From the NCBI RefSeq assembly GCF_003149185.1, contig NZ_QGDO01000003.1, positions 576,379-640,378 of the forward strand: a DNA stretch of 64,000 nt, in the 5' to 3' direction. Positions within the stretch are counted from its first letter, which is position 1; each line of letters begins with the position of its first letter. The position numbers and the translations under genes were made by a program. The notes below the pieces were generated by a model, which had not been told where the DNA came from, ran no database searches, and saw only the letters and a list, made by a program, of their open reading frames with translations. The DNA comes from Sediminitomix flava. Its GTDB lineage: Bacteria > Bacteroidota > Bacteroidia > Cytophagales > Flammeovirgaceae. Shown one piece after another: positions 28,640 through 39,142 of the stretch.

Positions 28640-29167
28640 ATGATGAGAAACTTAAAATATATTATTTCTCTTTTGGTCTTGTCGAGCTGTTTGGGTTATC
28701 CTAAAACTGTAGAGCCTGTAAAAGATTTTGAATTGGATAGTTATTTAGGAACATGGTACGAGGTGGCACGATTGGATCACTCTTTCGAGCGAGGTTTGGA
28801 ACAAGTATCCGCTACGTATTCTATGCGATCGGATGGAGGTGTAAAAGTTTTGAATAAAGGTTTTGATACTGAAAAAGGAGAGTGGTCAGATGCAGAAGGG
28901 AAAGCCTTTTTCGTCAGAGAAAAAGATGAAGCTTATCTAAAAGTATCTTTTTTCGGTCCTTTTTATGGCAGTTATGTTGTGTTCGAATTGGATAAAAAGA
29001 ATTATCAGTATGCTTTTATTTCTGGTGATAGTGAAAAGTATTTATGGTTCCTTTCTCGTACACCAGTAGTCAGTGATGAGTTGAAAAATCATTTTATTGA
29101 AAAAGCAAAAAGCTTAGGGTTTCCTACCGATCAATTGATATTTGTAAATCAAATTCCGAAAGATTAA
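28640..29167 (+). CDS. blc: Bacterial lipocalin (Blc-like outer-membrane lipoprotein)
   Basis: Lipoprotein signal (SSC) and lipocalin SCR1 motif LDSYLGTWYEVARLDHSFE. Confidence 0.8.
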   Translation: MMRNLKYIISLLVLSSCLGYPKTVEPVKDFELDSYLGTWYEVARLDHSFERGLEQVSATYSMRSDGGVKVLNKGFDTEKGEWSDAEGKAFFVREKDEAYLKVSFFGPFYGSYVVFELDKKNYQYAFISGDSEKYLWFLSRTPVVSDELKNHFIEKAKSLGFPTDQLIFVNQIPKD

Positions 29168-30783
29168 TCTATAGCTTTCCATTCTAAATAAATAAACTTC
29201 GCGGACTTGAAATTTGGAGGACATACAAGTTTGGTCAATAATCCTTTCTGAAAAACAAAAGCACTCATCGCACTAAGGTCTACTTGATGGGCTAATGTAT
29301 TCGAACTAATCAACTCAATTTCTTTAGGACTTAATTTATTCAGATGTGATCGGTGAAAAACATTTAAACCAGTGAAAGTATCATAGTACTGATGGAAGCA
29401 AATAAGTAGTCCTAGCGTTTGAACTGTGGAGTCATCACATTCTATTTTTTTCATTAAAGAATGAAAAGGAATATGTGTTTTTATCTCTGTTGAGAAATTC
29501 TGATTCCAAGGAATGATTTGCCCTTTTTCAAGCTCAAAATAGAAGGCGTCTGTAAGTGTTTTTGTTCCTAAAATATGAGCTGAAATATTGGTCAAATTCT
29601 GATTAAAGATATCAATTTGTAGTTCTTTACTTAGTTCGTTTTTGTATTCAATATGATTTGAAATCTGATTTAGAATTTTGTTTCGTTCCGTTTCTGTATA
29701 AATAGGTGGAAGTAACGCGCCTCCTCTATAACTCATTTTTCGATACAGATTAACCATGATTTTTTCATTGATATCATTATCGTAGGCAGACATGGCTGTC
29801 TTCATCCTAAATCTGATATTCTCTCTGAGCCGTTTTGGACTAATGACTTTTACGCCATCTCCAAAGCCAAGAATATCTTTTTCCAACTCGAAATTATGTT
29901 GCACTTTCAGCGAAATGATGATTCCAAACTGATTTTGTTCCTCTAACTTTTGTGACGCATGAAATGGCTTTGTAAGTACATAGGGAGCATGTTTTTGAGT
30001 GACAAATAATCTCACATCTTCTCCTTTCTGATTGGGATTGACGGTCACACCAATGGTATCCTTGAAATACGACTGCGGATCAAAATCGGGGCTTTCCGTA
30101 TATGGCTGTTCACTTGCTTTTATATCAAGAATTCGATCAAGTGCCAAATTGAAAATACCTTTGTTTCCTCCCAATTTCCCGATAATAAACCATCTATTTC
30201 TAAACTCTTTCAAAAGGTATGGAGACATATGAAAGTCTTTCGGGTATCGAGACTTGAAAGATTGATAGTTTAGCGTGATTGTTCGTTTTTGAGTAATGGC
30301 TTTGTATAAAGGGTCAAGCCATTTTAATCCTTTCAAATTTTCATTCTTCTCAAAGTCAATCACAGATGCTGTCTGATTCTTCTGAGAGTAAATGTGGTCT
30401 TCCAATTTTTGCACCATTCCGTCCAATTCTCTGAAATGTGAAAAACCTTGGAACTGTTTCATAAACTCTATGGCTTCTAAAAGCTTTCCTAGATCTTGTT
30501 GAGAGATGGGAATATTTGTAATACTATAGTTAGCATCTTCATACTGATAATACTTCTTCTCCTTAACTATAATTGGTGCATTATAGCCCAGTTTATCACT
30601 ACGCATCATCTGAATATCAGATTGTATGGTGCGTTTACTTATACCTTTGTCAATTCCTTCATATTCGTATAAAGCTTCCGAACAAGCCTCAATCAAATCT
30701 TCTAAAGTCCATTTTCTGAAGTTGTTTTGCAGACATTGGTCAATGGTTTTGTAGCGTATTAAAGCGTTTCTATTTACTGGCAT
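29164..30783 (-). CDS. WYL-domain transcriptional regulator with an extra ~230-aa C-terminal domain
   Basis: N-terminal wHTH (MPVNRNALIRYKTIDQCL...) and WYL domain (ITLNYQSFKSRYPKDFHMSPYLLKEFRNRWFIIG). The start is placed at the internal ATG (30783); the ORF extends to 30852. Confidence 0.7.
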   Translation of the reverse strand: MPVNRNALIRYKTIDQCLQNNFRKWTLEDLIEACSEALYEYEGIDKGISKRTIQSDIQMMRSDKLGYNAPIIVKEKKYYQYEDANYSITNIPISQQDLGKLLEAIEFMKQFQGFSHFRELDGMVQKLEDHIYSQKNQTASVIDFEKNENLKGLKWLDPLYKAITQKRTITLNYQSFKSRYPKDFHMSPYLLKEFRNRWFIIGKLGGNKGIFNLALDRILDIKASEQPYTESPDFDPQSYFKDTIGVTVNPNQKGEDVRLFVTQKHAPYVLTKPFHASQKLEEQNQFGIIISLKVQHNFELEKDILGFGDGVKVISPKRLRENIRFRMKTAMSAYDNDINEKIMVNLYRKMSYRGGALLPPIYTETERNKILNQISNHIEYKNELSKELQIDIFNQNLTNISAHILGTKTLTDAFYFELEKGQIIPWNQNFSTEIKTHIPFHSLMKKIECDDSTVQTLGLLICFHQYYDTFTGLNVFHRSHLNKLSPKEIELISSNTLAHQVDLSAMSAFVFQKGLLTKLVCPPNFKSAKFIYLEWKAID

Positions 30784-30959
30784 CTCAAAAAATTTTGAGA
30801 AAAATAGGAAATATTTTCTTCTACGCAAAAAGACTGCGCAGTAGGTGTTCACCTTTGAATTGTAAGTTAAACGGAAGGTAGTTTCAGAAGGGCTACACGG
30901 TGTTTGAGCAATCGCAAAAAATATACTGTCTGTTTAGTTTACTAGCAATAAGGTTCTCT

Positions 30960-31145
30960 GAGATAGAGGTTCGAATCCTCTCCTTTAAGGTGGTGCAAGG
31001 GTGAGCACGCAGAGGTTTTGCACTGTTTACGGAGGTTCGAATCCTCCCTTCGAAAGAAGTAGCATAGGGGTTAATGCACAGTTACACGTTTGTTGTCGGT
31101 TCGAATCCGACCTGTTTAAATACAGTAGTTCAATTGGCAGAACAA
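30960..31145 (+). ncRNA. Cluster of tRNA-like elements: three tandem T-arm motifs plus D-arm-like hairpins (pseudo-tRNAs / tRNA-like ncRNA)
   Basis: GGTTCGAATCC within 5-bp stems at ~30965-30981, 31031-31047 and 31095-31111. D-arm-like hairpins occur at 30993-31008, 31062-31077 and 31128-31143. Unit 2 (30984-31055) has acceptor, D and T arms but an unpaired anticodon arm. Confidence 0.35.
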
Positions 31146-31450
31146 TTTCCGAAGTCTGTTTCGCTTCTAAAACTGAAACACCATAAGGTAAGTACTCTTA
31201 GTACATGGCAGATAAGCTAGACTTAGATGCACATTGACCAGTACTTTGAGCAGTAAAGGATACCGTTAGTTGTATTTGATGAGATGAAATTATGTATCAA
31301 TTGCTTTTTTAAACTCATAAGATTTTTTGATGCAATGATAGCATGAGTTCATCTTTTTTAAACAGCAAACTCAATGGATGCCCGTATTCGGCAATGATGT
31401 ATTAAGAGGCTTACTCTTTTTTTATAGAGAACAATAACCAATACATAAAA

Positions 31451-32551
31451 ATGAAAAAGGTAAGAATAAACAAAGGGAAAATAGGTCTCGTTTACCGAGC
31501 GAAGGATTTGAACAGAGTAATATTAGACGGAGTCTATTGGCTTTCACCATTTGAACAAGTTGAAATCTTGGAGATGGAAGGTGCTTTTAAGCCTAGCCGA
31601 AATTTAAATCTTTACTTAGTTCATGAAGATTTATCTGAGCATTTGGATGTGATAGAAATCAAAGATCAAGAAATCGCTTTACGATATGAAAATGGAGTTT
31701 TCAAAGAAGTTTTGAGCACGACAGGTAAGCATGCTTATTGGAAAGGATTAAACTCTAATAGTTTTATCAAACAGAAGATTTCTGATGTAGAAATTCCATC
31801 TGATTTTGATCTAAATAAATTAAGCTTGGCTGGTGTATTTCCATTTGTACGTTCATTTCATATTGATACTTTCGAGAAAGGGTTACTTTATGTTGATGGC
31901 GATTTCTACAAAGAATTAGGTGCAGGTTATCACTATTTTTGGAAGAATGCACACAACATATCTTTACGAAAAGTGGATTTGCGTGAGCGCCAACAAGAGA
32001 TTGTTGGGCAAGAGATATTGACCAAAGATAAAGCTGCTTTACGCATCAATTTTACAGCACAATTCAAAGTAACAGATATCCGAAAAGCGTTAGAGGATAA
32101 TCAAGACTATGAGAAACAATTATATGTTTTGACGCAATTGGCTTTGAGAGCTTTTGTTGGTTCTTTGACTTTGGATGAGCTTTTGGAAAGAAAAGAAAGT
32201 ATATCGAAAGAGGTATTAGATAGCTTGAAAGAGAAAGTCTCAGACTTGGGTGTCTCATTGATTGATGCTGGAATAAAGGATATTATTTTGCCGGGTGAAG
32301 TGAAAGAAATCATGAAGCAAGTTTTGGTAGCTCAGAAACAAGCTCAGGCAAATATTATCACTCGAAGAGAGGAAACAGCTTCTACCCGAAGCTTATTGAA
32401 TACCGCAAAATTGATGGAAGACAATCAAATGCTCTTCAAATTGAAAGAGATGGAATACATTGAGAAGATCGCAGATAAGATCAATACTATTTCCGTCTCT
32501 GGAGGGAATCAGGTCGTAGACCAATTAAGAGACTTGTTTATCAGAAATTAG
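31451..32551 (+). CDS. SPFH/band-7 domain protein
   Basis: Band-7 core (ILTKDKAALRINFTAQFKVTD...) and a C-terminal coiled-coil typical of the stomatin/HflKC superfamily. Confidence 0.65.
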   Translation: MKKVRINKGKIGLVYRAKDLNRVILDGVYWLSPFEQVEILEMEGAFKPSRNLNLYLVHEDLSEHLDVIEIKDQEIALRYENGVFKEVLSTTGKHAYWKGLNSNSFIKQKISDVEIPSDFDLNKLSLAGVFPFVRSFHIDTFEKGLLYVDGDFYKELGAGYHYFWKNAHNISLRKVDLRERQQEIVGQEILTKDKAALRINFTAQFKVTDIRKALEDNQDYEKQLYVLTQLALRAFVGSLTLDELLERKESISKEVLDSLKEKVSDLGVSLIDAGIKDIILPGEVKEIMKQVLVAQKQAQANIITRREETASTRSLLNTAKLMEDNQMLFKLKEMEYIEKIADKINTISVSGGNQVVDQLRDLFIRN

Positions 32552-32559
32552 AAAAAGCA

Positions 32560-33333
32560 ATGAAAGAACAGATCAATAAAGTATTTGAAGGGAGGGAGGA
32601 AATCCCTCTTTTCTATATCGAAAGTGGAAGTCGACTTTGGAATATAGCAAGTCCCGATAGCGATTATGATGTTCGAGGTATTCACCTTCAATCTATAGCT
32701 CAAAAGTATGATTTTCAGAAACACAGAGATGTGATTGAAGTAATGGATGGTGACTTCGATTTTGTCTCTTATGATTTAGATAAGTTTCTGAATTTACTTT
32801 TAGATGGTAATGCTACCATATTGGAATGGTTCCGATCTGACATCATTTATTTCTCAGATATAAAAAACTTTGAAGCATATCAGTTGAAGATTTTAGATCA
32901 TGTCAATTTTAAGTCCATATTCTATCATTATATATCTTTGGCAAAGAAGCATTATCAACTTTTAGAAAGTGGAAAGAAGTTTACATACAAAGTGATCTTT
33001 TACTGTATTCGAGCTTTGTTATCTGCTGATTTAGCTGCTCAAAATAGATTAGCAGAATTGGATATTGAAAAGCTCTTTTCTCAATTTGACGAAGAAAATG
33101 AGGTGATTGTCCTTGCAAAATCTTGTTTAGATCAGAAACGAGCAGGAAATGAAAAGCAGTATGTTGAAGAAGAAAAACGAGAGCATATTCTTAGGGTGTT
33201 AAATGTATATAGAGAACGCTTACTGTTGAATCTTCCAAATGAGAATCACAATAAAGAGAAGCTTCGAGAGCTTTTAAGAGCATTTGCTTTTGAAGTTAAA
33301 TCAAGTTTTTACCATAAAGCAGAAATTGCTTGA
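32560..33333 (+). CDS. Predicted nucleotidyltransferase (PF10127/RlaP-like, RtcB-associated)
   Basis: N-terminal GSRLWNIASPDSDYDVRG (a GS...D.D pol-beta-like NTase motif); immediately upstream of RtcB. Confidence 0.5.
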   Translation: MKEQINKVFEGREEIPLFYIESGSRLWNIASPDSDYDVRGIHLQSIAQKYDFQKHRDVIEVMDGDFDFVSYDLDKFLNLLLDGNATILEWFRSDIIYFSDIKNFEAYQLKILDHVNFKSIFYHYISLAKKHYQLLESGKKFTYKVIFYCIRALLSADLAAQNRLAELDIEKLFSQFDEENEVIVLAKSCLDQKRAGNEKQYVEEEKREHILRVLNVYRERLLLNLPNENHNKEKLRELLRAFAFEVKSSFYHKAEIA

Positions 33334-33371: not shown

Positions 33372-34778
33372 ATGAAATATACATCTAAAGATATTATTTC
33401 AATTGGCTTTGAAGGAAAAGCGATTAGTTTGGCTTTAGAATACATGAGTCAAATAGCAGAAGAAGATGTAGCCGATGCCCTTGATACCTTAAAGCTATTA
33501 CATACGGATGTTACACTTTTTGTTGAACATCCCGATTTGAAGGATTTGGCAAATTGTCTTCTAGATAAAAAAGAAGCTCCTCAGCCAATTGAAATCTTAG
33601 ATCAAGCTTTACCCTATGAGATTTATGGGGCTAATGGAATAGAAGATGGGGCTTTAAACCAAATGGAAACAGTCATGAAATTACCCGTGGCGAGAAAGGG
33701 AGCTTTGATGCCCGATGCTCATCAAGGGTATGGCTTACCAATTGGTGGTGTTTTAGCGACTGAAAGTTCAATCATTCCTTATGCAGTGGGTGTAGATATT
33801 GGTTGTAGAATGTGTATGAGTATTTTTGATCTTCCAGTTTCTATGTTAGAAGATCGAAAAGGAGAGCTGAAAACGATTTTGAATAATGAAACTCGATTTG
33901 GGAGAGATACTTTCAGAAATCCTATAGATCATGAAATTTTGGCGAGTCCTCTTTTTAATGAAATTGATATCGTCAAAAAGTTGAAAGATAGAGCTGCTAA
34001 ACAAATCGGTTCTTCGGGTGGCGGAAATCACTTTGTGGAGTTTGGAATTACTGAAATTCACGAAGATGATCATGAATTGGGTTTGAAAAAAGGGAAATAT
34101 TTGGCACTGCTTTCACATTCGGGTTCGAGAGGATTAGGTGCTACTATTGCCAATCATTACACCAAAATAGCCATGAATCAATGTCTTTTACCAAAAGAAG
34201 CAAAACATCTGGCTTGGTTAGATTTGAATAAAGAAGAAGGACAAGAGTATTGGCTTGTTATGAATTTGGCAGGGGATTACGCCTCGGCTTGTCATCATCA
34301 AATTCATGATCGAATAGCAAAAGTATTGAATGAAAAACCTCTCGCTATGTTAGAAAATCATCACAATTTTGCTTGGAAGGAAGTCGATCAGAATGGGAAA
34401 GAATATATTGTTCATCGGAAAGGAGCGACACCAGCTGGAGAAGGCGTTTTAGGTGTTATTCCTGGTTCTATGACTGCGCCCGGTTTTATTGTTCGAGGAA
34501 AAGGAAATCCACTTTCGGTAGATTCGGCAGCACATGGAGCAGGGCGTCAGATGTCAAGAACTGCGGCTAAAAAGACCTTGCAGAAAAGTGATGTGATTCA
34601 GCATTTGAATGATCACGGAATTGAATTACTCGGAGCAGGACTCGATGAAGCACCTATGGCTTACAAGGATATTCATTCGGTAATGGAGCACCAAAAAGAT
34701 TTGGTGGATATCGTCGGTACATTTCTACCTAAAGTGGTCAGAATGTGTGGCGATTCTAGCTTTAAAGAAGTAGATTGA
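33372..34778 (+). CDS. rtcB: RNA-splicing ligase RtcB (3'-phosphate/5'-hydroxyl RNA ligase)
   Basis: All RtcB metal/GTP motifs are present: MPDAHQGYG, GGGNHF, HSGSRGLG, ENHHNFAWKE and HRKGATPA. Confidence 0.85.
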   Translation: MKYTSKDIISIGFEGKAISLALEYMSQIAEEDVADALDTLKLLHTDVTLFVEHPDLKDLANCLLDKKEAPQPIEILDQALPYEIYGANGIEDGALNQMETVMKLPVARKGALMPDAHQGYGLPIGGVLATESSIIPYAVGVDIGCRMCMSIFDLPVSMLEDRKGELKTILNNETRFGRDTFRNPIDHEILASPLFNEIDIVKKLKDRAAKQIGSSGGGNHFVEFGITEIHEDDHELGLKKGKYLALLSHSGSRGLGATIANHYTKIAMNQCLLPKEAKHLAWLDLNKEEGQEYWLVMNLAGDYASACHHQIHDRIAKVLNEKPLAMLENHHNFAWKEVDQNGKEYIVHRKGATPAGEGVLGVIPGSMTAPGFIVRGKGNPLSVDSAAHGAGRQMSRTAAKKTLQKSDVIQHLNDHGIELLGAGLDEAPMAYKDIHSVMEHQKDLVDIVGTFLPKVVRMCGDSSFKEVD

Positions 34779-34852: not shown

Positions 34853-37800
34853 TTGTACCTTCAAAAGTTTCAAAACAGACTTCCAAAAATTCTCATGATT
34901 ACGAATTCTTTACTTGATAGCTATACTGACTTTGAACAAAAAATTCAAAGATACCCAGAAGATCAACAACTCAAGCTTGTCACGCTAATGTTGTATGTGG
35001 GCTATTCGGGAGAGTCTATTCAGACCATCAAAAGGGATTTTTATAGAGTGATAGAAGTATCTCAAGCGTTCAATCAATCCGAATTGAATCTGTTACTCGA
35101 AGAAGTGTTTGTCTGTAAATTTTTAGATGATGAATCTTTCCAGTTTCAACGTATTTATAAAGTAGATTCTGCTGATCTTTTTGTGAGTTGTGCACACTAT
35201 TTCTTTTTTACCTTAAATCAGCATTCTCTTTTTGAAACTTACCAATCCAATCTGAGTGCAAAACAAAGCAGTAAGTATAATTCATATTGGAATGAGCGAG
35301 TGAAACAAGATAATATCATTCGTGACTTCTTTATAGATCAGCCAATTTCTGAAAGGCTTGTTCAGCTTAGTTATCTGTTAGCTACAGTTGAGTTTTCTCA
35401 ATCTCCAATTGCTGCAGATTTAGTTTTGAGTTTTGTAGCTCTCTGCCAACTGAAAAAATGTTTTCCATCTTTCTTAATTGAAGATGATTACAATTTGAAT
35501 CAGATCACTCAACTTTTATTGAAGGAGCTTTATCATGGAAAGTTAGCATTGGAGAGGCTCACAAACTGTTTAACTACGCTTTACGAATTGACTTCTAGCG
35601 AAAGATTTCTAATGCTAAAGTCACTCTTAAATCATCAGTTTAAAGGGAAAGAGTTTGCTATAAAAAATGAGCTTAAGTCCGATTTTTATCAAAGACTAAT
35701 TCCATATGCTAACCTTATAAATCATAAGAATAGTGAAGTCCTAAAGAATTTTTTGTCAGAAAGTGGAATCGCTGATCTTTCCAAAGAAGCGAAGAAGAAA
35801 TCGTCTAAGAATTGGAAGTTACTTTCTCAGCAAAAGGAAGTATTGTTGGTGTTTTTTCTACTTCGAGAAGAATATACGCACAGAGACTTTTTATTCAACA
35901 GATATAAATTTCTCCTCAAATCAAATACCACTCAAATCCTTTTTTACGAACATCTGATTGATCTTCTTATTCTTTTTAAAACAGAAATAGATGTCGATTG
36001 TAAAAATTACAAAGAGGATGTATTGAGCTATTGGAAAAGCTATTTCGATGATGCTTTCAAACAGCTTTCCCCTCTTTCGTTTCCAATCATTTTATTTCTG
36101 CTCAAAGAAGTTTTCAAAAATGAGTTTTATGTCACTGATGAAATTGTTGAACAACTCAATTTCAGAGCTTCAAGTTATCATCGAAAAGGGTTGAATTGGT
36201 ATGCTTCTATAACCGCAGAACTCTGTGTGCGATTTAACGATGAATGGCTGCAACCTCAGTTTGAAAGAATGCTTGTAGAAGATGGGTTTCAGTTGAAAAA
36301 TATCTTTGAGCAAGAAGACCCGAACGATTGGAAAGCTTTAGTGGCCAAAATGGAAAAACTTGCTGACAGGCTTAAAGAAATTGATGAGGAAAAGAAAGAA
36401 CAAGAGAACGCCACGCAGCATCGTTTGATTTGGGTGGTTTCTCCAAAGTACCTTCAAGTCAAACCCTTTGAGCAGAATCGTTTGAAATCTGGGAAGTGGG
36501 GTAAGCCGAAAAAGATTTCAGATCAGAAGTTAATCTCAAAAGATATAAAAGGGGCTATTGAACTGGATTTTGAAATTCTGAATCATGCATACCAAACCAA
36601 TAAAGGGTATTATGAAGATTATGTAGCCTATGAAGTTCTCGAAGTTTGGAAACGATTGGAAGGACATCCAAATGTTGTTTTGGAAGAAAATATAGATCAG
36701 TCAGTGACGGTGACTAAAGAAGAAATCGAAATATCAGTTGCTGAAAATGGAGATTTCTATGAACTGAATTTTGGACAAGATTTCAATATGAACTTTCCTG
36801 TCAAGCAAGAGAGTACGACACGTTTTACTTATTTCAATGTCGATGAAAAAGTAAAAGAGTGGTTTAGCACCTTTCCACAAGGTGTTCTGATTCCGAAAGA
36901 AGCGAAGAATGAATTGAAAGCAGTTGTAGGACAGTTGAGCAGAAATCTTCATGTGCATTCTAAGGTTGATGAGATCAGAGAAGAGCTTCCCGAAATCTCT
37001 GCTGATACGCAGCTTTATGCTTTGCTTACACCAAAAGGAAATAACATTCAACTGAATTTATATTTCAAGCCTTTTTCTACACAGTTACCTTATGTTGTTC
37101 CGACCAAAGGAAAGGAAGCTTTGATCGAGGATGTGCAACGTGTGCGTACAAGAGCTGTTCGTGATTTTAGAGTAGAAGAGGAAATTATACGAAACTTTTT
37201 TGTCGATAGACCGAATCTTTTCAATACCCATGATGGGCATTTTTCTTGGGAATTGACTGACCGAGTAGAAGCACTGAATGCACTAATGGAATTGCAGTCG
37301 GGAGCTTTCAAAGCAATTATAGAATGGCCAAAAGGAGTGAAGTTTCAGTTATTGGCTTCAGCAGATGTTTCTCAATTGTCGATGTCTGTAAAAATGAAAA
37401 AGACCGATTGGTTTCATTTGGATGGCGAGCTGAAAATCAATGAAGAAATTGTCGTTTCTCTGATGGAACTTCTTTCCAAATACAAAGAAAATCCAAGTTT
37501 ACAGTTTGTAGAGGTTCGGGAAAATCAATTTATCTCTTTGACCAATAAACTGAGAACTCAGTTGGCAGCCTTTGAGAATTTTGCTGAAGACTTTAGGCAG
37601 GGAATTGATATGCATCCTTTAGTGACCTATGGCATTCTTCATGAGTTGAAAGAGAAAATAAATCTTGATGCAGATCAAGCATGGACAGAATTTGAGGATA
37701 GAGTAGAAACAGCTTATGCTACTGAGTTCTCATTACCAAAAAATCTTCAAGCTACCCTAAGAGATTATCAGTTGGACGGTTATCAATGGCTTTCAATACT

Positions 37801-39142
37801 TTCTGCTTCTGGGGCAGGAGCGTGTTTGGCAGATGACATGGGACTGGGGAAAACTTTACAAGCAATTACGCTACTTTTAGCACAAGCTAAAGATGGTGCT
37901 TCTTTAGTAATCGCTCCTTCCTCAGTGACTTTCAATTGGGTGAAAGAAATACAGAAGTTTGCACCAACGCTCAACGTACATTTGCTTTCTGAAGTCTCTA
38001 AGCGAGAAACACTGATTAAATCTTTAGGGCAGAATGATGTTTTGATCTGTAGTTATGGACTTTTACAGACGGGTATTCCTGCACTCAGAAAAAAAGGCTG
38101 GAATGTAATTATTTTGGATGAAGCGCAAGCCATCAAGAACAGATCGACTAAACGTTCTGAAGAGGCGATGAAGCTGAAAGCAAAAACTAGAATTCTGACG
38201 ACGGGAACACCTATTGAAAATAATTTGGGCGAACTCTGGAATCTCTTCCAGTTTATCAATCCAGGTTTGTTGGGAGATTGGGAGTCATTCAATGACAACT
38301 ATATCTTAAGAATCACGTCTGATGATGACCTTCATGCTAAAGTAGCTCGTCGAAATCTTCGAAAAATTATTGCTCCTTTTATTCTTAGAAGAACGAAGAG
38401 TGAGGTGTTGGAAGAGTTACCACAGAAAACAGAAATGGTGCTCAATGTAAAAATGTCAGAAGAAGAGTCAATTTACTATGAGGCATTGAGAAGAACGGCA
38501 ATTGGTGAGATTGAGGACATCATTGAAAAGAAAAAAGAAGGCGGGGCTTTCAAAGTCTTGGCAGAGCTGACCAAACTTCGTCAAGCCTGTTGTCACCCAA
38601 CATTGATCAATCACGAATGGCAATGGGAGAGTAGTAAACTAAGTCTTTTCTTAGAAACCGTAAAAGAATTAAAAGCAGGAGGGCACAGAGCACTTGTCTT
38701 TAGCCAGTTTGTGAGTTATCTGAATATTCTAAAGGTCGAACTAGAAAAAGAAGGCGTTTCTTATCAGTATTTAGATGGTTCTACCACTCTTAAGAATCGA
38801 GAAAAAGCAGTCAATGATTTCCAAAGTGGAGAAGGAGATGTCTTCTTGATTTCTCTAAAGGCTGGAGGAACAGGGTTAAATCTCACTACAGCAGATTATG
38901 TCATTCATATGGATCCGTGGTGGAATCCTGCCGTAGAAGACCAAGCCACAGACAGAGCTTACAGAATTGGGCAAGAAAGACCTGTGACGGTCTACAGACT
39001 AATCACACAAAATACAATTGAAGAAAAAATGATTCAGTTGCATCATGAAAAAAGACAATTGGCGGATGATCTATTAAGTGAAAGTGCGACCACAACAAAA
39101 CTAGATACGAAAGAACTTTTGAAGCTAATTACTGAGTTTTAA
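34853..39142 (+). CDS. SNF2/Swi2-family ATPase with a ~950-aa uncharacterised N-terminal region
   Basis: The C-terminal third has SNF2 motifs (LRDYQLDGYQWL, DDMGLGKTLQAI, DEAQAIKN, helicase-C block). The N-terminal region matches no family I recognise. Confidence 0.7.
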   Translation: MYLQKFQNRLPKILMITNSLLDSYTDFEQKIQRYPEDQQLKLVTLMLYVGYSGESIQTIKRDFYRVIEVSQAFNQSELNLLLEEVFVCKFLDDESFQFQRIYKVDSADLFVSCAHYFFFTLNQHSLFETYQSNLSAKQSSKYNSYWNERVKQDNIIRDFFIDQPISERLVQLSYLLATVEFSQSPIAADLVLSFVALCQLKKCFPSFLIEDDYNLNQITQLLLKELYHGKLALERLTNCLTTLYELTSSERFLMLKSLLNHQFKGKEFAIKNELKSDFYQRLIPYANLINHKNSEVLKNFLSESGIADLSKEAKKKSSKNWKLLSQQKEVLLVFFLLREEYTHRDFLFNRYKFLLKSNTTQILFYEHLIDLLILFKTEIDVDCKNYKEDVLSYWKSYFDDAFKQLSPLSFPIILFLLKEVFKNEFYVTDEIVEQLNFRASSYHRKGLNWYASITAELCVRFNDEWLQPQFERMLVEDGFQLKNIFEQEDPNDWKALVAKMEKLADRLKEIDEEKKEQENATQHRLIWVVSPKYLQVKPFEQNRLKSGKWGKPKKISDQKLISKDIKGAIELDFEILNHAYQTNKGYYEDYVAYEVLEVWKRLEGHPNVVLEENIDQSVTVTKEEIEISVAENGDFYELNFGQDFNMNFPVKQESTTRFTYFNVDEKVKEWFSTFPQGVLIPKEAKNELKAVVGQLSRNLHVHSKVDEIREELPEISADTQLYALLTPKGNNIQLNLYFKPFSTQLPYVVPTKGKEALIEDVQRVRTRAVRDFRVEEEIIRNFFVDRPNLFNTHDGHFSWELTDRVEALNALMELQSGAFKAIIEWPKGVKFQLLASADVSQLSMSVKMKKTDWFHLDGELKINEEIVVSLMELLSKYKENPSLQFVEVRENQFISLTNKLRTQLAAFENFAEDFRQGIDMHPLVTYGILHELKEKINLDADQAWTEFEDRVETAYATEFSLPKNLQATLRDYQLDGYQWLSILSASGAGACLADDMGLGKTLQAITLLLAQAKDGASLVIAPSSVTFNWVKEIQKFAPTLNVHLLSEVSKRETLIKSLGQNDVLICSYGLLQTGIPALRKKGWNVIILDEAQAIKNRSTKRSEEAMKLKAKTRILTTGTPIENNLGELWNLFQFINPGLLGDWESFNDNYILRITSDDDLHAKVARRNLRKIIAPFILRRTKSEVLEELPQKTEMVLNVKMSEEESIYYEALRRTAIGEIEDIIEKKKEGGAFKVLAELTKLRQACCHPTLINHEWQWESSKLSLFLETVKELKAGGHRALVFSQFVSYLNILKVELEKEGVSYQYLDGSTTLKNREKAVNDFQSGEGDVFLISLKAGGTGLNLTTADYVIHMDPWWNPAVEDQATDRAYRIGQERPVTVYRLITQNTIEEKMIQLHHEKRQLADDLLSESATTTKLDTKELLKLITEF

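Follow-up and report, generated by a model that had tools for sequence, protein, structure and literature searches.

YrlA RNAs, bacterial Y-like mimics of transfer RNA (tRNA), are the closest described relatives of the element treated here, a tandem array of tRNA-like units upstream of RNA-repair genes in Sediminitomix flava. The tRNA-like module of YrlA is a crystallographically confirmed mimic, a tRNA in circularly permuted order whose acceptor stem is closed; it folds into the L-shape of tRNA, is modified by TruB and DusA, and carries a conserved elbow that has been proposed to bind an effector (bioRxiv 10.1101/312249). YrlA is a stable trans-acting RNA; in M. smegmatis RNase P cleaves it and CCA is added (PMC4201824). 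It has also been proposed to act as a decoy that competitively inhibits anticodon nucleases (PMC7790460). One criterion for membership of the family is a Ro60/Rsr (TROVE) gene within about 4 kb, and tRNA dimers are known to be able to mimic YrlA (Chen et al. 2014, PMC4201824).

A further candidate is described second-hand in the same preprint (bioRxiv 10.1101/312249). According to that account, Burroughs and Aravind (2016) predicted b7a-tRNA (Band-7-associated tRNA) beside Band-7 and RtcB genes and noted YrlA occasionally beside Band-7. Band-7 together with a tRNA-like RNA is there proposed as a parallel of Ro60 with Y RNA, and as an RtcB cofactor.

The DNA analysed here, hereafter the window, is a 64,000-nucleotide (nt) stretch of the S. 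flava contig NZ_QGDO01000003.1 (576,379-640,378, forward strand). Some 600 nt separate two divergent genes, a WYL-WCX regulator on the minus strand and the first of a Band-7/SPFH - RlaP - RtcB series on the plus strand, and the array lies in this gap. An initial annotation, made from the letters alone, had proposed that the units are tRNA-like but have no anticodon arm, in the manner of the YrlA RNAs that accompany RtcB and Ro. Gene context, the best Rfam match and covariation all support that proposal. Each unit is very probably a tRNA mimic complete in itself and circularly permuted as in YrlA, and three copies (M1 to M3) stand in tandem on the plus strand. Taken as a whole, the explanation that we consider likely is that of a tandem tRNA-mimic array within the RNA of an RNA-repair operon, perhaps acting as a decoy or scaffold.

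The T-arm/D-arm array and its modules

Three T-arms with perfect stems of 5 base pairs (bp) follow one another at start-to-start spacings of 66 and 64 nt: agagg-ttcgaat-cctct (30965-30981), ggagg-ttcgaat-cctcc (31031-31047) and gtcgg-ttcgaat-ccgac (31095-31111). Three 4-bp D-arms, each with a GG-containing 8-nt loop, are formed by gtgc/gcac (30993-31008), gcat/atgc (31062-31077) and gttc/gaac (31128-31143). These arms, their spacing and a hairpin with a GTT-containing loop (gaagt/gcttc, 31151-31167) all lie where the initial annotation had placed them. The 11-mer GGTTCGAATCC occurs exactly three times on the two strands of the window, always within the array; a search tolerating one mismatch gives 5 matches, where shuffles predict 0.54, and 0 of 100 shuffles reached 5. 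This clustering of T-arms is far above chance, and no further T-arm of the type was found on either strand of the window.

From 5′ to 3′ a module consists of one strand of a closing stem, a variable loop of 4-5 nt, the T-arm, a loop-capped acceptor-like hairpin, U8-N9, the D-arm and the second closing-stem strand. It has neither an anticodon loop nor a free CCA end, and its closing stem is the equivalent of the anticodon stem. The array opens with a T-arm and ends with a D-arm, and so holds three whole permuted units as against two whole conventional ones. Two covariance models were used: R1, which describes the unit of T-arm, hairpin and D-arm and was derived from orthologous loci together with two units of the window, and R2, the same unit with the closing stem added. 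R1 finds two units per orthologue and, in the window, nothing substantial beyond the three modules:

30955-31015, plus strand: module M1, the extra copy seen only in S. flava (R1 31.8 bits, R2 29.6 bits)
30955-30960 (TCTCTG) with 31010-31015 (CAGAGG), plus strand: M1 closing stem, 6 bp
30965-30981 and 30993-31008, plus strand: M1 T-arm, preceded by the variable loop AGAT, and M1 D-arm, preceded by U8-G9
30982-30990, plus strand: weak acceptor-like hairpin of M1, CCTTTAAGG
31022-31082, plus strand: module M2 (R1 55.0 bits, R2 40.2 bits)
31022-31026 (ACTGT) with 31078-31082 (ACAGT), plus strand: M2 closing stem
31031-31047 and 31062-31077, plus strand: M2 T-arm, preceded by the variable loop TTAC, and M2 D-arm, preceded by U8-A9
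31048-31059, plus strand: GNRA-capped acceptor-like hairpin of M2, CTTC-GAAA-GAAG
31084-31150, plus strand: module M3 (R1 63.7 bits, R2 37.6 bits)
31095-31111 and 31128-31143, plus strand: M3 T-arm, and M3 D-arm, preceded by U8-A9
31112-31125, plus strand: acceptor-like hairpin of M3, CTGT-TTAAAT-ACAG

Band-7 orthologues at 60-63% identity are common in Bacteroidota. Ten independent loci with such an orthologue, all from that phylum, were compared: L201 (Limibacter), L202 (Cyclobacteriaceae), L204 (Ekhidna), L205 (Chitinophaga-like) and L207-L212; the near-duplicates L203, L206 and L213-L215, the last three being near-copies of L202, were not counted. Tandem modules precede Band-7 in all ten, in the order T-arm, short hairpin, UA, D-arm. 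Each of the ten has two modules, and three are found only in S. flava. M1 is a lineage-specific tandem duplicate of M2, because it is closest to M2 (72% identity), while M2 and M3 correspond to modules 1 and 2 of Limibacter at 69% identity each. A genome scan anchored on RlaP covered 80 loci and met the RNA in one only, that of Siphonobacter (L002), where a YrlA-like RNA lies downstream of Ro60 and RlaP genes accompanied by the same kind of WYL regulator; RlaP proved a poor anchor because it is found in many other contexts, and the Band-7 anchor worked.

Conservation and covariation across relatives, to which the initial annotation had tied its proposal, extend over the whole order of T-arm, closed hairpin and D-arm. 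In the R1 alignment of 25 units, 98.2% of the cells are paired and both-sided changes occur in 12 of the 14 pairs; all five pairs of the acceptor-like hairpin covary. When the partner strand was slid by 1-3 columns as a control, pairing fell to 36-54%. The R2 alignment of 24 units has 94% of its cells paired and both-sided changes in 18 of 20 pairs, the four inner closing pairs being about 90% paired with 7-9 double changes each. The closing stem, 4-6 bp long on each first unit, joins the bases 5′ of the variable loop to those one position past the D-arm, which is the exact register of a tRNA. Because both hairpin and closing stem are conserved and covary, the unit corresponds to the permuted tRNA, sealed at the acceptor, of the YrlA effector module. 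What had been taken for tRNAs that do not close are thus complete permuted modules with closing stems of their own, that of M3 being poor.

The nucleotides of the tertiary contacts are also in place, T-loop UUCRA, D-loop GG, U8, A14 and R15-Y48 being present in all three window modules. The 15-48 (Levitt) pair fits inside the module in 22 of 25 cases. In the window it is A15-U48 in M1, G15-C48 in M2 and A15-U48 in M3, all compatible, and four switches from G-C to A-U were counted (window M1, window M3, and the second modules of L202 and L211). A small protein encoded by the open reading frame (ORF) at 31001-31186 was considered and ruled out, as conservation tracks base-pairing rather than reading frame.

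The segment between T-arm and D-arm folds on itself, with a sequence that varies by locus and a pairing that is kept. The hairpins, with stems of 3-7 bp, fold better than at least 95% of shuffles in 20 of 23 cases, and GNRA or UUCG caps are seen in, among others, L205 (CCCTG-GAAA-CAGGG), L201 (CCATC-GTAA-GATGG) and L208 (CCCGG-GCAA-CCGGG). These hairpins bear on the idea that the units are precursors resembling permuted pre-tRNAs, in which the co-encoded RtcB would ligate the closing stem after a cut in the acceptor-like loop and so yield a tRNA-shaped product. Circularly permuted tRNA genes do occur in the red alga Cyanidioschyzon. A permuted tRNA would have the same order of T-arm, acceptor strands and D-arm, RtcB ligates tRNA halves, and the processing of M. 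smegmatis YrlA by RNase P with addition of CCA (PMC4201824) would offer a precedent. However, stems of this length, several of them sealed by GNRA or UUCG loops, are judged poor substrates of RNase P (bioRxiv 10.1101/312249), the first modules lack an anticodon loop that processing could restore, and CCA is not encoded; such precursors seem to us very improbable.

Conservation and covariation also dispose of two other origins that the initial annotation had raised, a decayed tRNA cluster and attachment-site scars. Mobile elements that integrate again and again at a tRNA gene could leave duplicated tRNA 3′ ends, and arrays of this sort exist, for example units of T-arm, acceptor strand and ACCA in the metagenomic locus L150. 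In S. flava, however, no two of the three T-stems are alike and every T-arm has a D-arm of its own after it, neither CCA-type ends nor an integrase was found near the array (ORF list and Pfam matches of the neighbours), and the arrangement is kept with compensatory changes across Bacteroidota families. The scar reading is refuted on these grounds, and its probability is negligible.

A metagenome scan for three T-arms at sub-tRNA spacing returned more than 120 loci, two of them near RtcB or Band-7 homologues. Those inspected were rejected as members of the family, being arrays of shortened tRNA units (L187) or repeats of tRNA 3′ ends (L150), and R2 gave only matches resembling the junctions of tRNA dimers. 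In L187 (2400-3000, minus strand) full tRNAs alternate with near-identical tRNA-like units that have a 7-bp acceptor, a D-arm and a T-arm, with 16 nt replacing the anticodon arm. L150 (2300-3161, minus strand) and L144 (1-420), both high-GC metagenome contigs, carry repeats of T-arm, acceptor strand and ACCA and other shortened units upstream of distant homologues of Band-7 (34% identity) or RtcB (33% identity); these look like tRNA-3′-end repeats rather than YrlA-type modules.

Matches to YrlA and tRNA models

In scans against Rfam, the tRNA family is matched above its gathering score at 30984-31055 and YrlA (RF02553) below its own at 31064-31173. The latter is the best match of a permissive scan (E 2.9e-7), with 40 bits against a gathering threshold of 69 bits, and its full-length alignment is forced through the D-arm of M2. 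Modules of the relatives score 33-49 bits and match positions ~23-89 of the model, the tRNA-like core. The long helix that binds Ro60/Rsr was not found: the orthologues match the core only, and the modules abut with closing stems of 4-6 bp. Nor was a Ro60/TROVE homologue found in the 64-kb window by tblastn with Bacteroidota Ro60 (best E 0.3) or among the Pfam matches of the neighbours. The S. flava locus thus has no Ro60/Rsr (TROVE) gene within about 4 kb; the related L002 and L212 do have one. The likeness to YrlA holds for the tRNA-like half, but a Ro-binding stem and a Ro60 gene in the window are missing. The S. flava RNA is therefore YrlA-like and not a member of the YrlA family, as it lacks the Ro-binding module and Ro60 adjacency and scores below the Rfam threshold.

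The RNA could still be an ordinary Ro60-dependent YrlA, or three of them, served by a Ro60 gene elsewhere in the S. flava genome; YrlA is the best Rfam match, and L212 and L002 carry a TROVE/Ro60 gene under the same operator as the S. flava locus (see below). We consider this improbable, since the window has no homologue and the score is low. Moreover, the orthologues do not match the Ro-binding stem, for which the short closing stems and head-to-tail joins leave no room, and 8 of the 10 Band-7 loci have no Ro60 gene nearby.

The match to the tRNA family coincides with the sole gene that ARAGORN calls in the whole window, a tRNA-Gln(ttg):

30984-31055, plus strand: 'tRNA-Gln(ttg)' of ARAGORN and Rfam, an artefact composed of the M1 D-arm, halves of two closing stems and the M2 T-arm

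The initial annotation had described this stretch accurately as its unit 2 (a 6/7-bp acceptor, a 22-nt segment between D-arm and T-arm and an anticodon stem that cannot pair), and had reckoned with an ordinary tRNA cluster should tRNA-finding software call full tRNAs here. Formally ARAGORN does call one, but the call is an artefact that joins the D-arm of M1 to the T-arm of M2. Read in order, the 22-nt segment consists of G, CAGAGG from the 3′ side of the M1 closing stem, TTTTGC, ACTGT from the 5′ side of the M2 closing stem, and the variable loop TTAC. The 'anticodon stem' consists of two Watson-Crick pairs, two G-U pairs and one mismatch, while the acceptor, 6/7 paired, competes with the conserved GAAA-capped hairpin. 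In the relatives the D-to-T linkers measure 12-26 nt, mostly too short for an anticodon arm, and the would-be acceptor has 2-6 of 7 positions paired. ARAGORN called no cross-module tRNA in 10 orthologues, and Rfam gave weak cross-module matches (40 bits) in 2 of 8 orthologous loci scanned. For 30955-31083 the modular fold reaches -32.9 kcal/mol as against -16.5 kcal/mol for the cloverleaf. Drawn across modules, the 15-48 pair is compatible in only 6 of 12 cases, neither of the two in the window among them. It is the shared strands, the linker length, the silence of ARAGORN in orthologues, the energy and the failed 15-48 pair that together mark the call as artefactual.

An odd but real tRNA-Gln-UUG gene flanked by decayed tRNA fragments would account for the ARAGORN call, for an Rfam tRNA (RF00005) score of 34.2 bits above the gathering score of 29, and for the paired acceptor and 22-nt segment. 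The score, however, is far under that of the genuine tRNAs in the comparison loci (49-67 bits), the anticodon stem is unpaired and its halves belong to two different conserved closing stems. Furthermore, no such call recurs in orthologues with their short linkers, the modular fold is more stable than the cloverleaf by 16 kcal/mol, the tertiary pair fails, and an array that starts on a T-arm and stops on a D-arm holds only two whole conventional units. A real tRNA gene is thus largely refuted, and we assign it very little probability. In practical terms, adjacent YrlA-like modules are liable to be mis-called as tRNA genes by standard software.

The surrounding RNA, its putative promoter and the repair genes

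The array is part of a larger conserved element. The initial annotation had set its limits at 30960-31170, within which the motifs do lie; the alignment of 11 sequences is conserved from about 90 nt 5′ of the first T-arm to about 145 nt 3′ of the last D-arm, and the feature reaches roughly from 30866 to 31290:

30866-31290 (at least ~425 nt), plus strand: structured RNA containing the array, approximate extent, from the 11-sequence alignment
30879-30895, plus strand: 5′ hairpin P1, TAGTT-TCAGAAG-GGCTA, 5 bp, four covarying positions in 11 sequences
30900-30924, plus strand: 5′ hairpin P2, GTGTT...AATAT, apical part variable, 5 bp, four covarying positions
31151-31180, plus strand: H-type pseudoknot, tabulated per sequence, in 9 of 11 loci
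31151-31154 (GAAG) with 31164-31167 (CTTC), plus strand: pseudoknot stem 1
31157-31163 (TGTTTCG) with 31174-31180 (TGAAACA), plus strand: pseudoknot stem 2
31168-31173, plus strand: A-rich pseudoknot loop 3, TAAAAC
31258-31265 and 31272-31287, plus strand: 3′ motifs GGATACCG and GTATTTGATGAGATGA, aligned in 9-10 of the 11 sequences

In the window and eight orthologous loci, no Rfam family matches the flanking domains, and the modules give only the sub-threshold YrlA and weak tRNA matches. P1 has the family consensus xxGUU-UCUGUAU-AGCxx. The conserved CUGAUGAG 5′ of it prompted a comparison with the hammerhead ribozyme, which was ruled out because the GAAA core and the cleavage-site arrangement are missing.

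The hairpin at 31151-31167 exists as first noted, but its role is that of pseudoknot stem 1 and not of an anticodon arm; its 'loop' is therefore one strand of stem 2. Stem 1 follows the pattern NAAG/CUUN, with GAAG/CUUC in seven loci, compensatory CAAG/CUUG in L204 and UAAG/CUUG in L210. Stem 2, of 4-7 bp, differs in sequence in every locus except L207 and L208, which share the 5′ strand, and the loop 3 consensus (C)UAAAAA is conserved. The pseudoknot was counted sequence by sequence because register errors of MAFFT made a formal pair count unreliable; RNAalifold returned no structure for the MAFFT alignment of the 3′ domain. A long-range helix between 30927-30934, after P2, and 31207-31214, after the pseudoknot, would enclose the array; the segments are complementary in nine loci in an inconsistent register, and the helix is tentative.

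Most relatives have, directly after the last D-arm, a hairpin like an anticodon arm, such as AUGGA-CUGUUAA-UCCAU, and the last module in those relatives is therefore a complete permuted cloverleaf, broken in the variable loop. Its loop is the textbook C-U-NNN-A-A, with 'anticodons' GUU (three times), CAU, GAA, CAA, GCG and GAU (L204 3642-3662, L209 2664-2682, L210 2689-2706, L211, L212, L207, L208 and L201). In L210 the same ATGGA is able to pair upstream or downstream.

Upstream of the RNA lie two short elements:

30820-30842, strand not assigned: operator-like inverted repeat TCTACGCA-AAAAGAC-TGCGCAGT, in the same place in 11 of 12 loci
30850-30857, plus strand: CACCTTTG box, 7 nt after the operator in the window and conserved beside it in most loci

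The repeat belongs to a near-invariant 23-nt family with the consensus ACTACGCA-N7-TGCGTAGT, a perfect 8-bp repeat with a 7-nt spacer. The 12 loci scanned include the window, and the 11 positive ones include the Ro60-type L002 and L212. Elsewhere the repeat lies at 3415 in L201, 3159 in L202, 2010 in L207, 2041 in L209, 152 in L212 and 3173 in L002, and it adjoins every WYL-WCX gene of this type, in both Band-7-type and Ro60-type repair loci. It is presumed to be, and probably is, the binding site of the WYL regulator. The CACCTTTG box resembles TAnnTTTG, the published consensus of the Bacteroidota -7 promoter element, and is on that ground a putative promoter; a start of the RNA at about 30863-30868 is predicted. 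This arrangement suggests that the WYL protein controls a promoter, overlapped by the operator, that drives both the RNA and the repair genes. A scan for sigma-70 promoters and terminators gave nothing useful around the array, as expected for an AT-rich Bacteroidota genome.

The genes on either side are as follows:

29164-30783, minus strand: WYL-WCX transcription regulator (Pfam WYL 2.7e-10, WCX 3.4e-10)
31451-32551, plus strand: Band-7/SPFH (slipin-like) protein, 366 aa (Pfam Band_7 1.2e-32)
32560-33333, plus strand: RlaP nucleotidyltransferase, RNA repair pathway, Pol-beta family (Pfam RlaP 1.1e-40)
33372-34778, plus strand: RtcB RNA ligase (Pfam RtcB 6.1e-83)
34853-39142, plus strand: SNF2-family helicase, 1429 aa, after a 75-nt gap behind RtcB

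The ORF list places the start of the WYL protein at GTG 30852, with a frame that then crosses the operator; ATG 30783 is more likely the start, because the WYL starts of orthologues sit about 37 nt from the operator. A C-terminal PhyH domain (2-oxoglutarate/Fe(II) dioxygenase-like) is usual on WYL-WCX proteins of the relatives (L201, L202, L207-L209 and L211-L213), and in S. flava the corresponding 200 residues give no Pfam match. RlaP and Band-7 each match a Sediminitomix flava protein with 100% identity. The Band-7 protein has two stretches that Pfam assigns to Band_7, no hydrophobic membrane anchor is visible in its translation as judged by eye, and it may be a soluble SPFH protein.

The setting is conserved as well. 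Nine of the ten loci have the divergent WYL-WCX gene across a gap of 620-1250 nt; Band-7 follows the gap in all ten and RtcB follows Band-7 in eight, while the presence of RlaP, HEPN, Thg1 and Ro60 genes varies. The SNF2-family helicase gene after RtcB is not kept in the orthologous loci. In some orthologous operons extra genes lie right after RtcB (L202 6799-8262, L213 5789-6511, L212 5910-7125), for the predicted RNases HEPN_Apea/HEPN_AbiU2, or for a Thg1-like 3′-5′ polymerase with a kinase-like gene, which hints at nuclease-plus-repair cassettes. Between the WYL-controlled promoter and the RNA several relatives carry authentic-looking tRNAs (L202 3267-3352, L207 2130-2213, L208 2066-2149, L213-L215, L204 2992-3142 and L210 2238-2384): Tyr-GTA in four lineages, L202, L207 and L208 among them, Gln with Asp in one locus and Glu with Gln in another, and none in S. 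flava. Anticodon nucleases have several of these isoacceptors among their classic targets.

The position of the RNA also admits a different function, as mainly a cis-acting leader of the Band-7 - RlaP - RtcB mRNA and not a free cofactor, working through a bound tRNA-recognising protein, as a damage sensor that is cut and re-ligated, or by attenuation. A leader may run on from the RNA as far as 31451, where Band-7 starts. RNA and gene share a strand and follow directly on each other, no promoter is recognised between them, and the one conserved pair of promoter-like element and operator stands 5′ of the RNA. Conservation of the RNA reaches to about 160 nt from the start codon, and two weak candidates of a hairpin plus U-run (~31312-31361 and 31403-31425) stand between RNA and gene. 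However, the YrlA-like RNA of Siphonobacter L002 lies downstream of the last gene and is no leader, the terminator scan was null, and the fold of 31285-31455 holds no convincing terminator and is no better than shuffles. YrlA itself, the closest relative, is a stable trans-acting RNA (PMC4201824). A leader is the main rival, to which we give a modest share of the probability; leader and cofactor roles are not mutually exclusive.

Possible function and comparison with known systems

A decoy or scaffold reading of the array would run as follows. The RNA would be transcribed towards, and probably together with, the Band-7/SPFH - RlaP - RtcB genes. Each module would fold into a tRNA-like L and offer its T-loop/D-loop elbow to tRNA-binding proteins. 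Lacking both an anticodon loop and an acceptor end, it would escape decoding, charging and cleavage by anticodon nucleases. Once the WYL regulator switches the operon on, such a multivalent decoy and scaffold might recruit or hold a soluble Band-7 oligomer, RtcB and RlaP, with Band-7 playing the part that Ro60 plays for YrlA. We regard an elbow-bearing decoy or scaffold for the co-encoded repair proteins as plausible, if slightly short of an even call.

Several points weigh against this interpretation and the module assignments beneath it. The acceptor-like hairpin of M1 has no predicted stability and is the weakest of the array, M3 has no convincing closing stem (three of its six closing pairs are non-standard), and S. 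flava lacks the anticodon-arm-like hairpin after the last D-arm. The sample comprises about ten independent relatives from Bacteroidota alone. Covariation was counted on model-fitted alignments, which favours the model, although slid and shuffled controls score far lower. The RNAfold energy of 30930-31200 is no better than that of shuffles (z = -0.14), so that support for the fold is comparative and not thermodynamic; the unconstrained fold mispairs the near-identical T-arms. Beyond the observed anatomy, conservation, covariation and synteny, we infer the transcription start, the 3′ end, co-transcription with Band-7, the protein partners and the function. Finally, four features are apparently undescribed, namely the tandem arrangement independent of Ro, the domains that flank it, the operator of the WYL regulator and the three-module form, but they are set apart from b7a-tRNA by a second-hand description, and the overlap with it is uncertain.

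A broader proposal, put forward tentatively and with more doubt than confidence, is that the array forms the core of an undescribed family of large non-coding RNAs of about 400-450 nt, absent from Rfam 15. Such an RNA would have a pair of hairpins on its 5′ side, two or three permuted mimics independent of Ro, in some cases a hairpin like an anticodon arm, and an H-type pseudoknot with an A-rich loop; it would be the dedicated partner of a soluble Band-7/SPFH protein in WYL-controlled RtcB operons of Bacteroidota. If true, tRNA mimicry would underlie two types of ribonucleoprotein, the second of them a parallel to Ro60 with Y RNA and loosely reminiscent of vault particles, in which an SPFH-like shell protein is joined by a small RNA. 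Loci of the S. flava type offer a clean Ro-independent version of the system, with promoter and operator, a presumably soluble Band-7, RtcB and RlaP, and the recognisable functional surfaces of their RNA are two or three tRNA elbows and a pseudoknot only. They make the binding of proteins to the elbow, the protection of tRNA from anticodon nucleases and the effect of valency testable.

With YrlA the modules share the permuted design (variable loop, T-arm, closed acceptor-like stem-loop, U8-N9, D-arm and a closing helix like an anticodon stem), the tertiary-contact nucleotides T-loop UUCRA, D-loop GG, U8, A14 and R15-Y48, and the association with RtcB RNA-repair genes. They differ in that YrlA has one module per RNA and a Ro-binding module, whereas here two to three modules stand head to tail within a larger RNA with 5′ hairpins and a pseudoknot, no Ro-binding module is present and no Ro60 gene is nearby. 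The neighbour here is Band-7/SPFH, and the regulator is of the WYL type rather than RtcR.

The comparison with b7a-tRNA is limited to what the preprint relays of it. The genomic definition, a predicted tRNA-like RNA encoded beside Band-7 and RtcB, applies to S. flava, and the remark on YrlA next to Band-7 describes essentially the S. flava situation. In contrast, b7a-tRNA is there said to 'strongly resemble an authentic tRNA', a resemblance not seen in modules that have neither an anticodon arm nor a free acceptor end. In several relatives, tRNAs of authentic appearance precede the RNA (e.g. the tRNA-Tyr-GTA of L202, L207 and L208), and these may be b7a-tRNA.

Canonical and dimeric tRNA genes have in common with the array the T-arm and D-arm sequences, the tertiary contacts and, probably, the L-shaped fold. 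They are set apart by the permuted strand order, the loop-sealed acceptor and the missing anticodon loop of the modules, and by a T-to-D spacing of 11-16 nt that is too short for two neighbouring acceptor strands. The warning of Chen et al. (2014, PMC4201824) is thus reversed in S. flava, where adjacent YrlA-like modules mimic a tRNA. The tRNA-like domain of tmRNA, the 3′ tRNA-like structures of viruses and the MALAT1 mascRNA likewise use a tRNA shape that engages tRNA-binding proteins, but they have a free acceptor or CCA end or signals for RNase P/Z, whereas the S. flava modules have a closed acceptor and form a tandem array.

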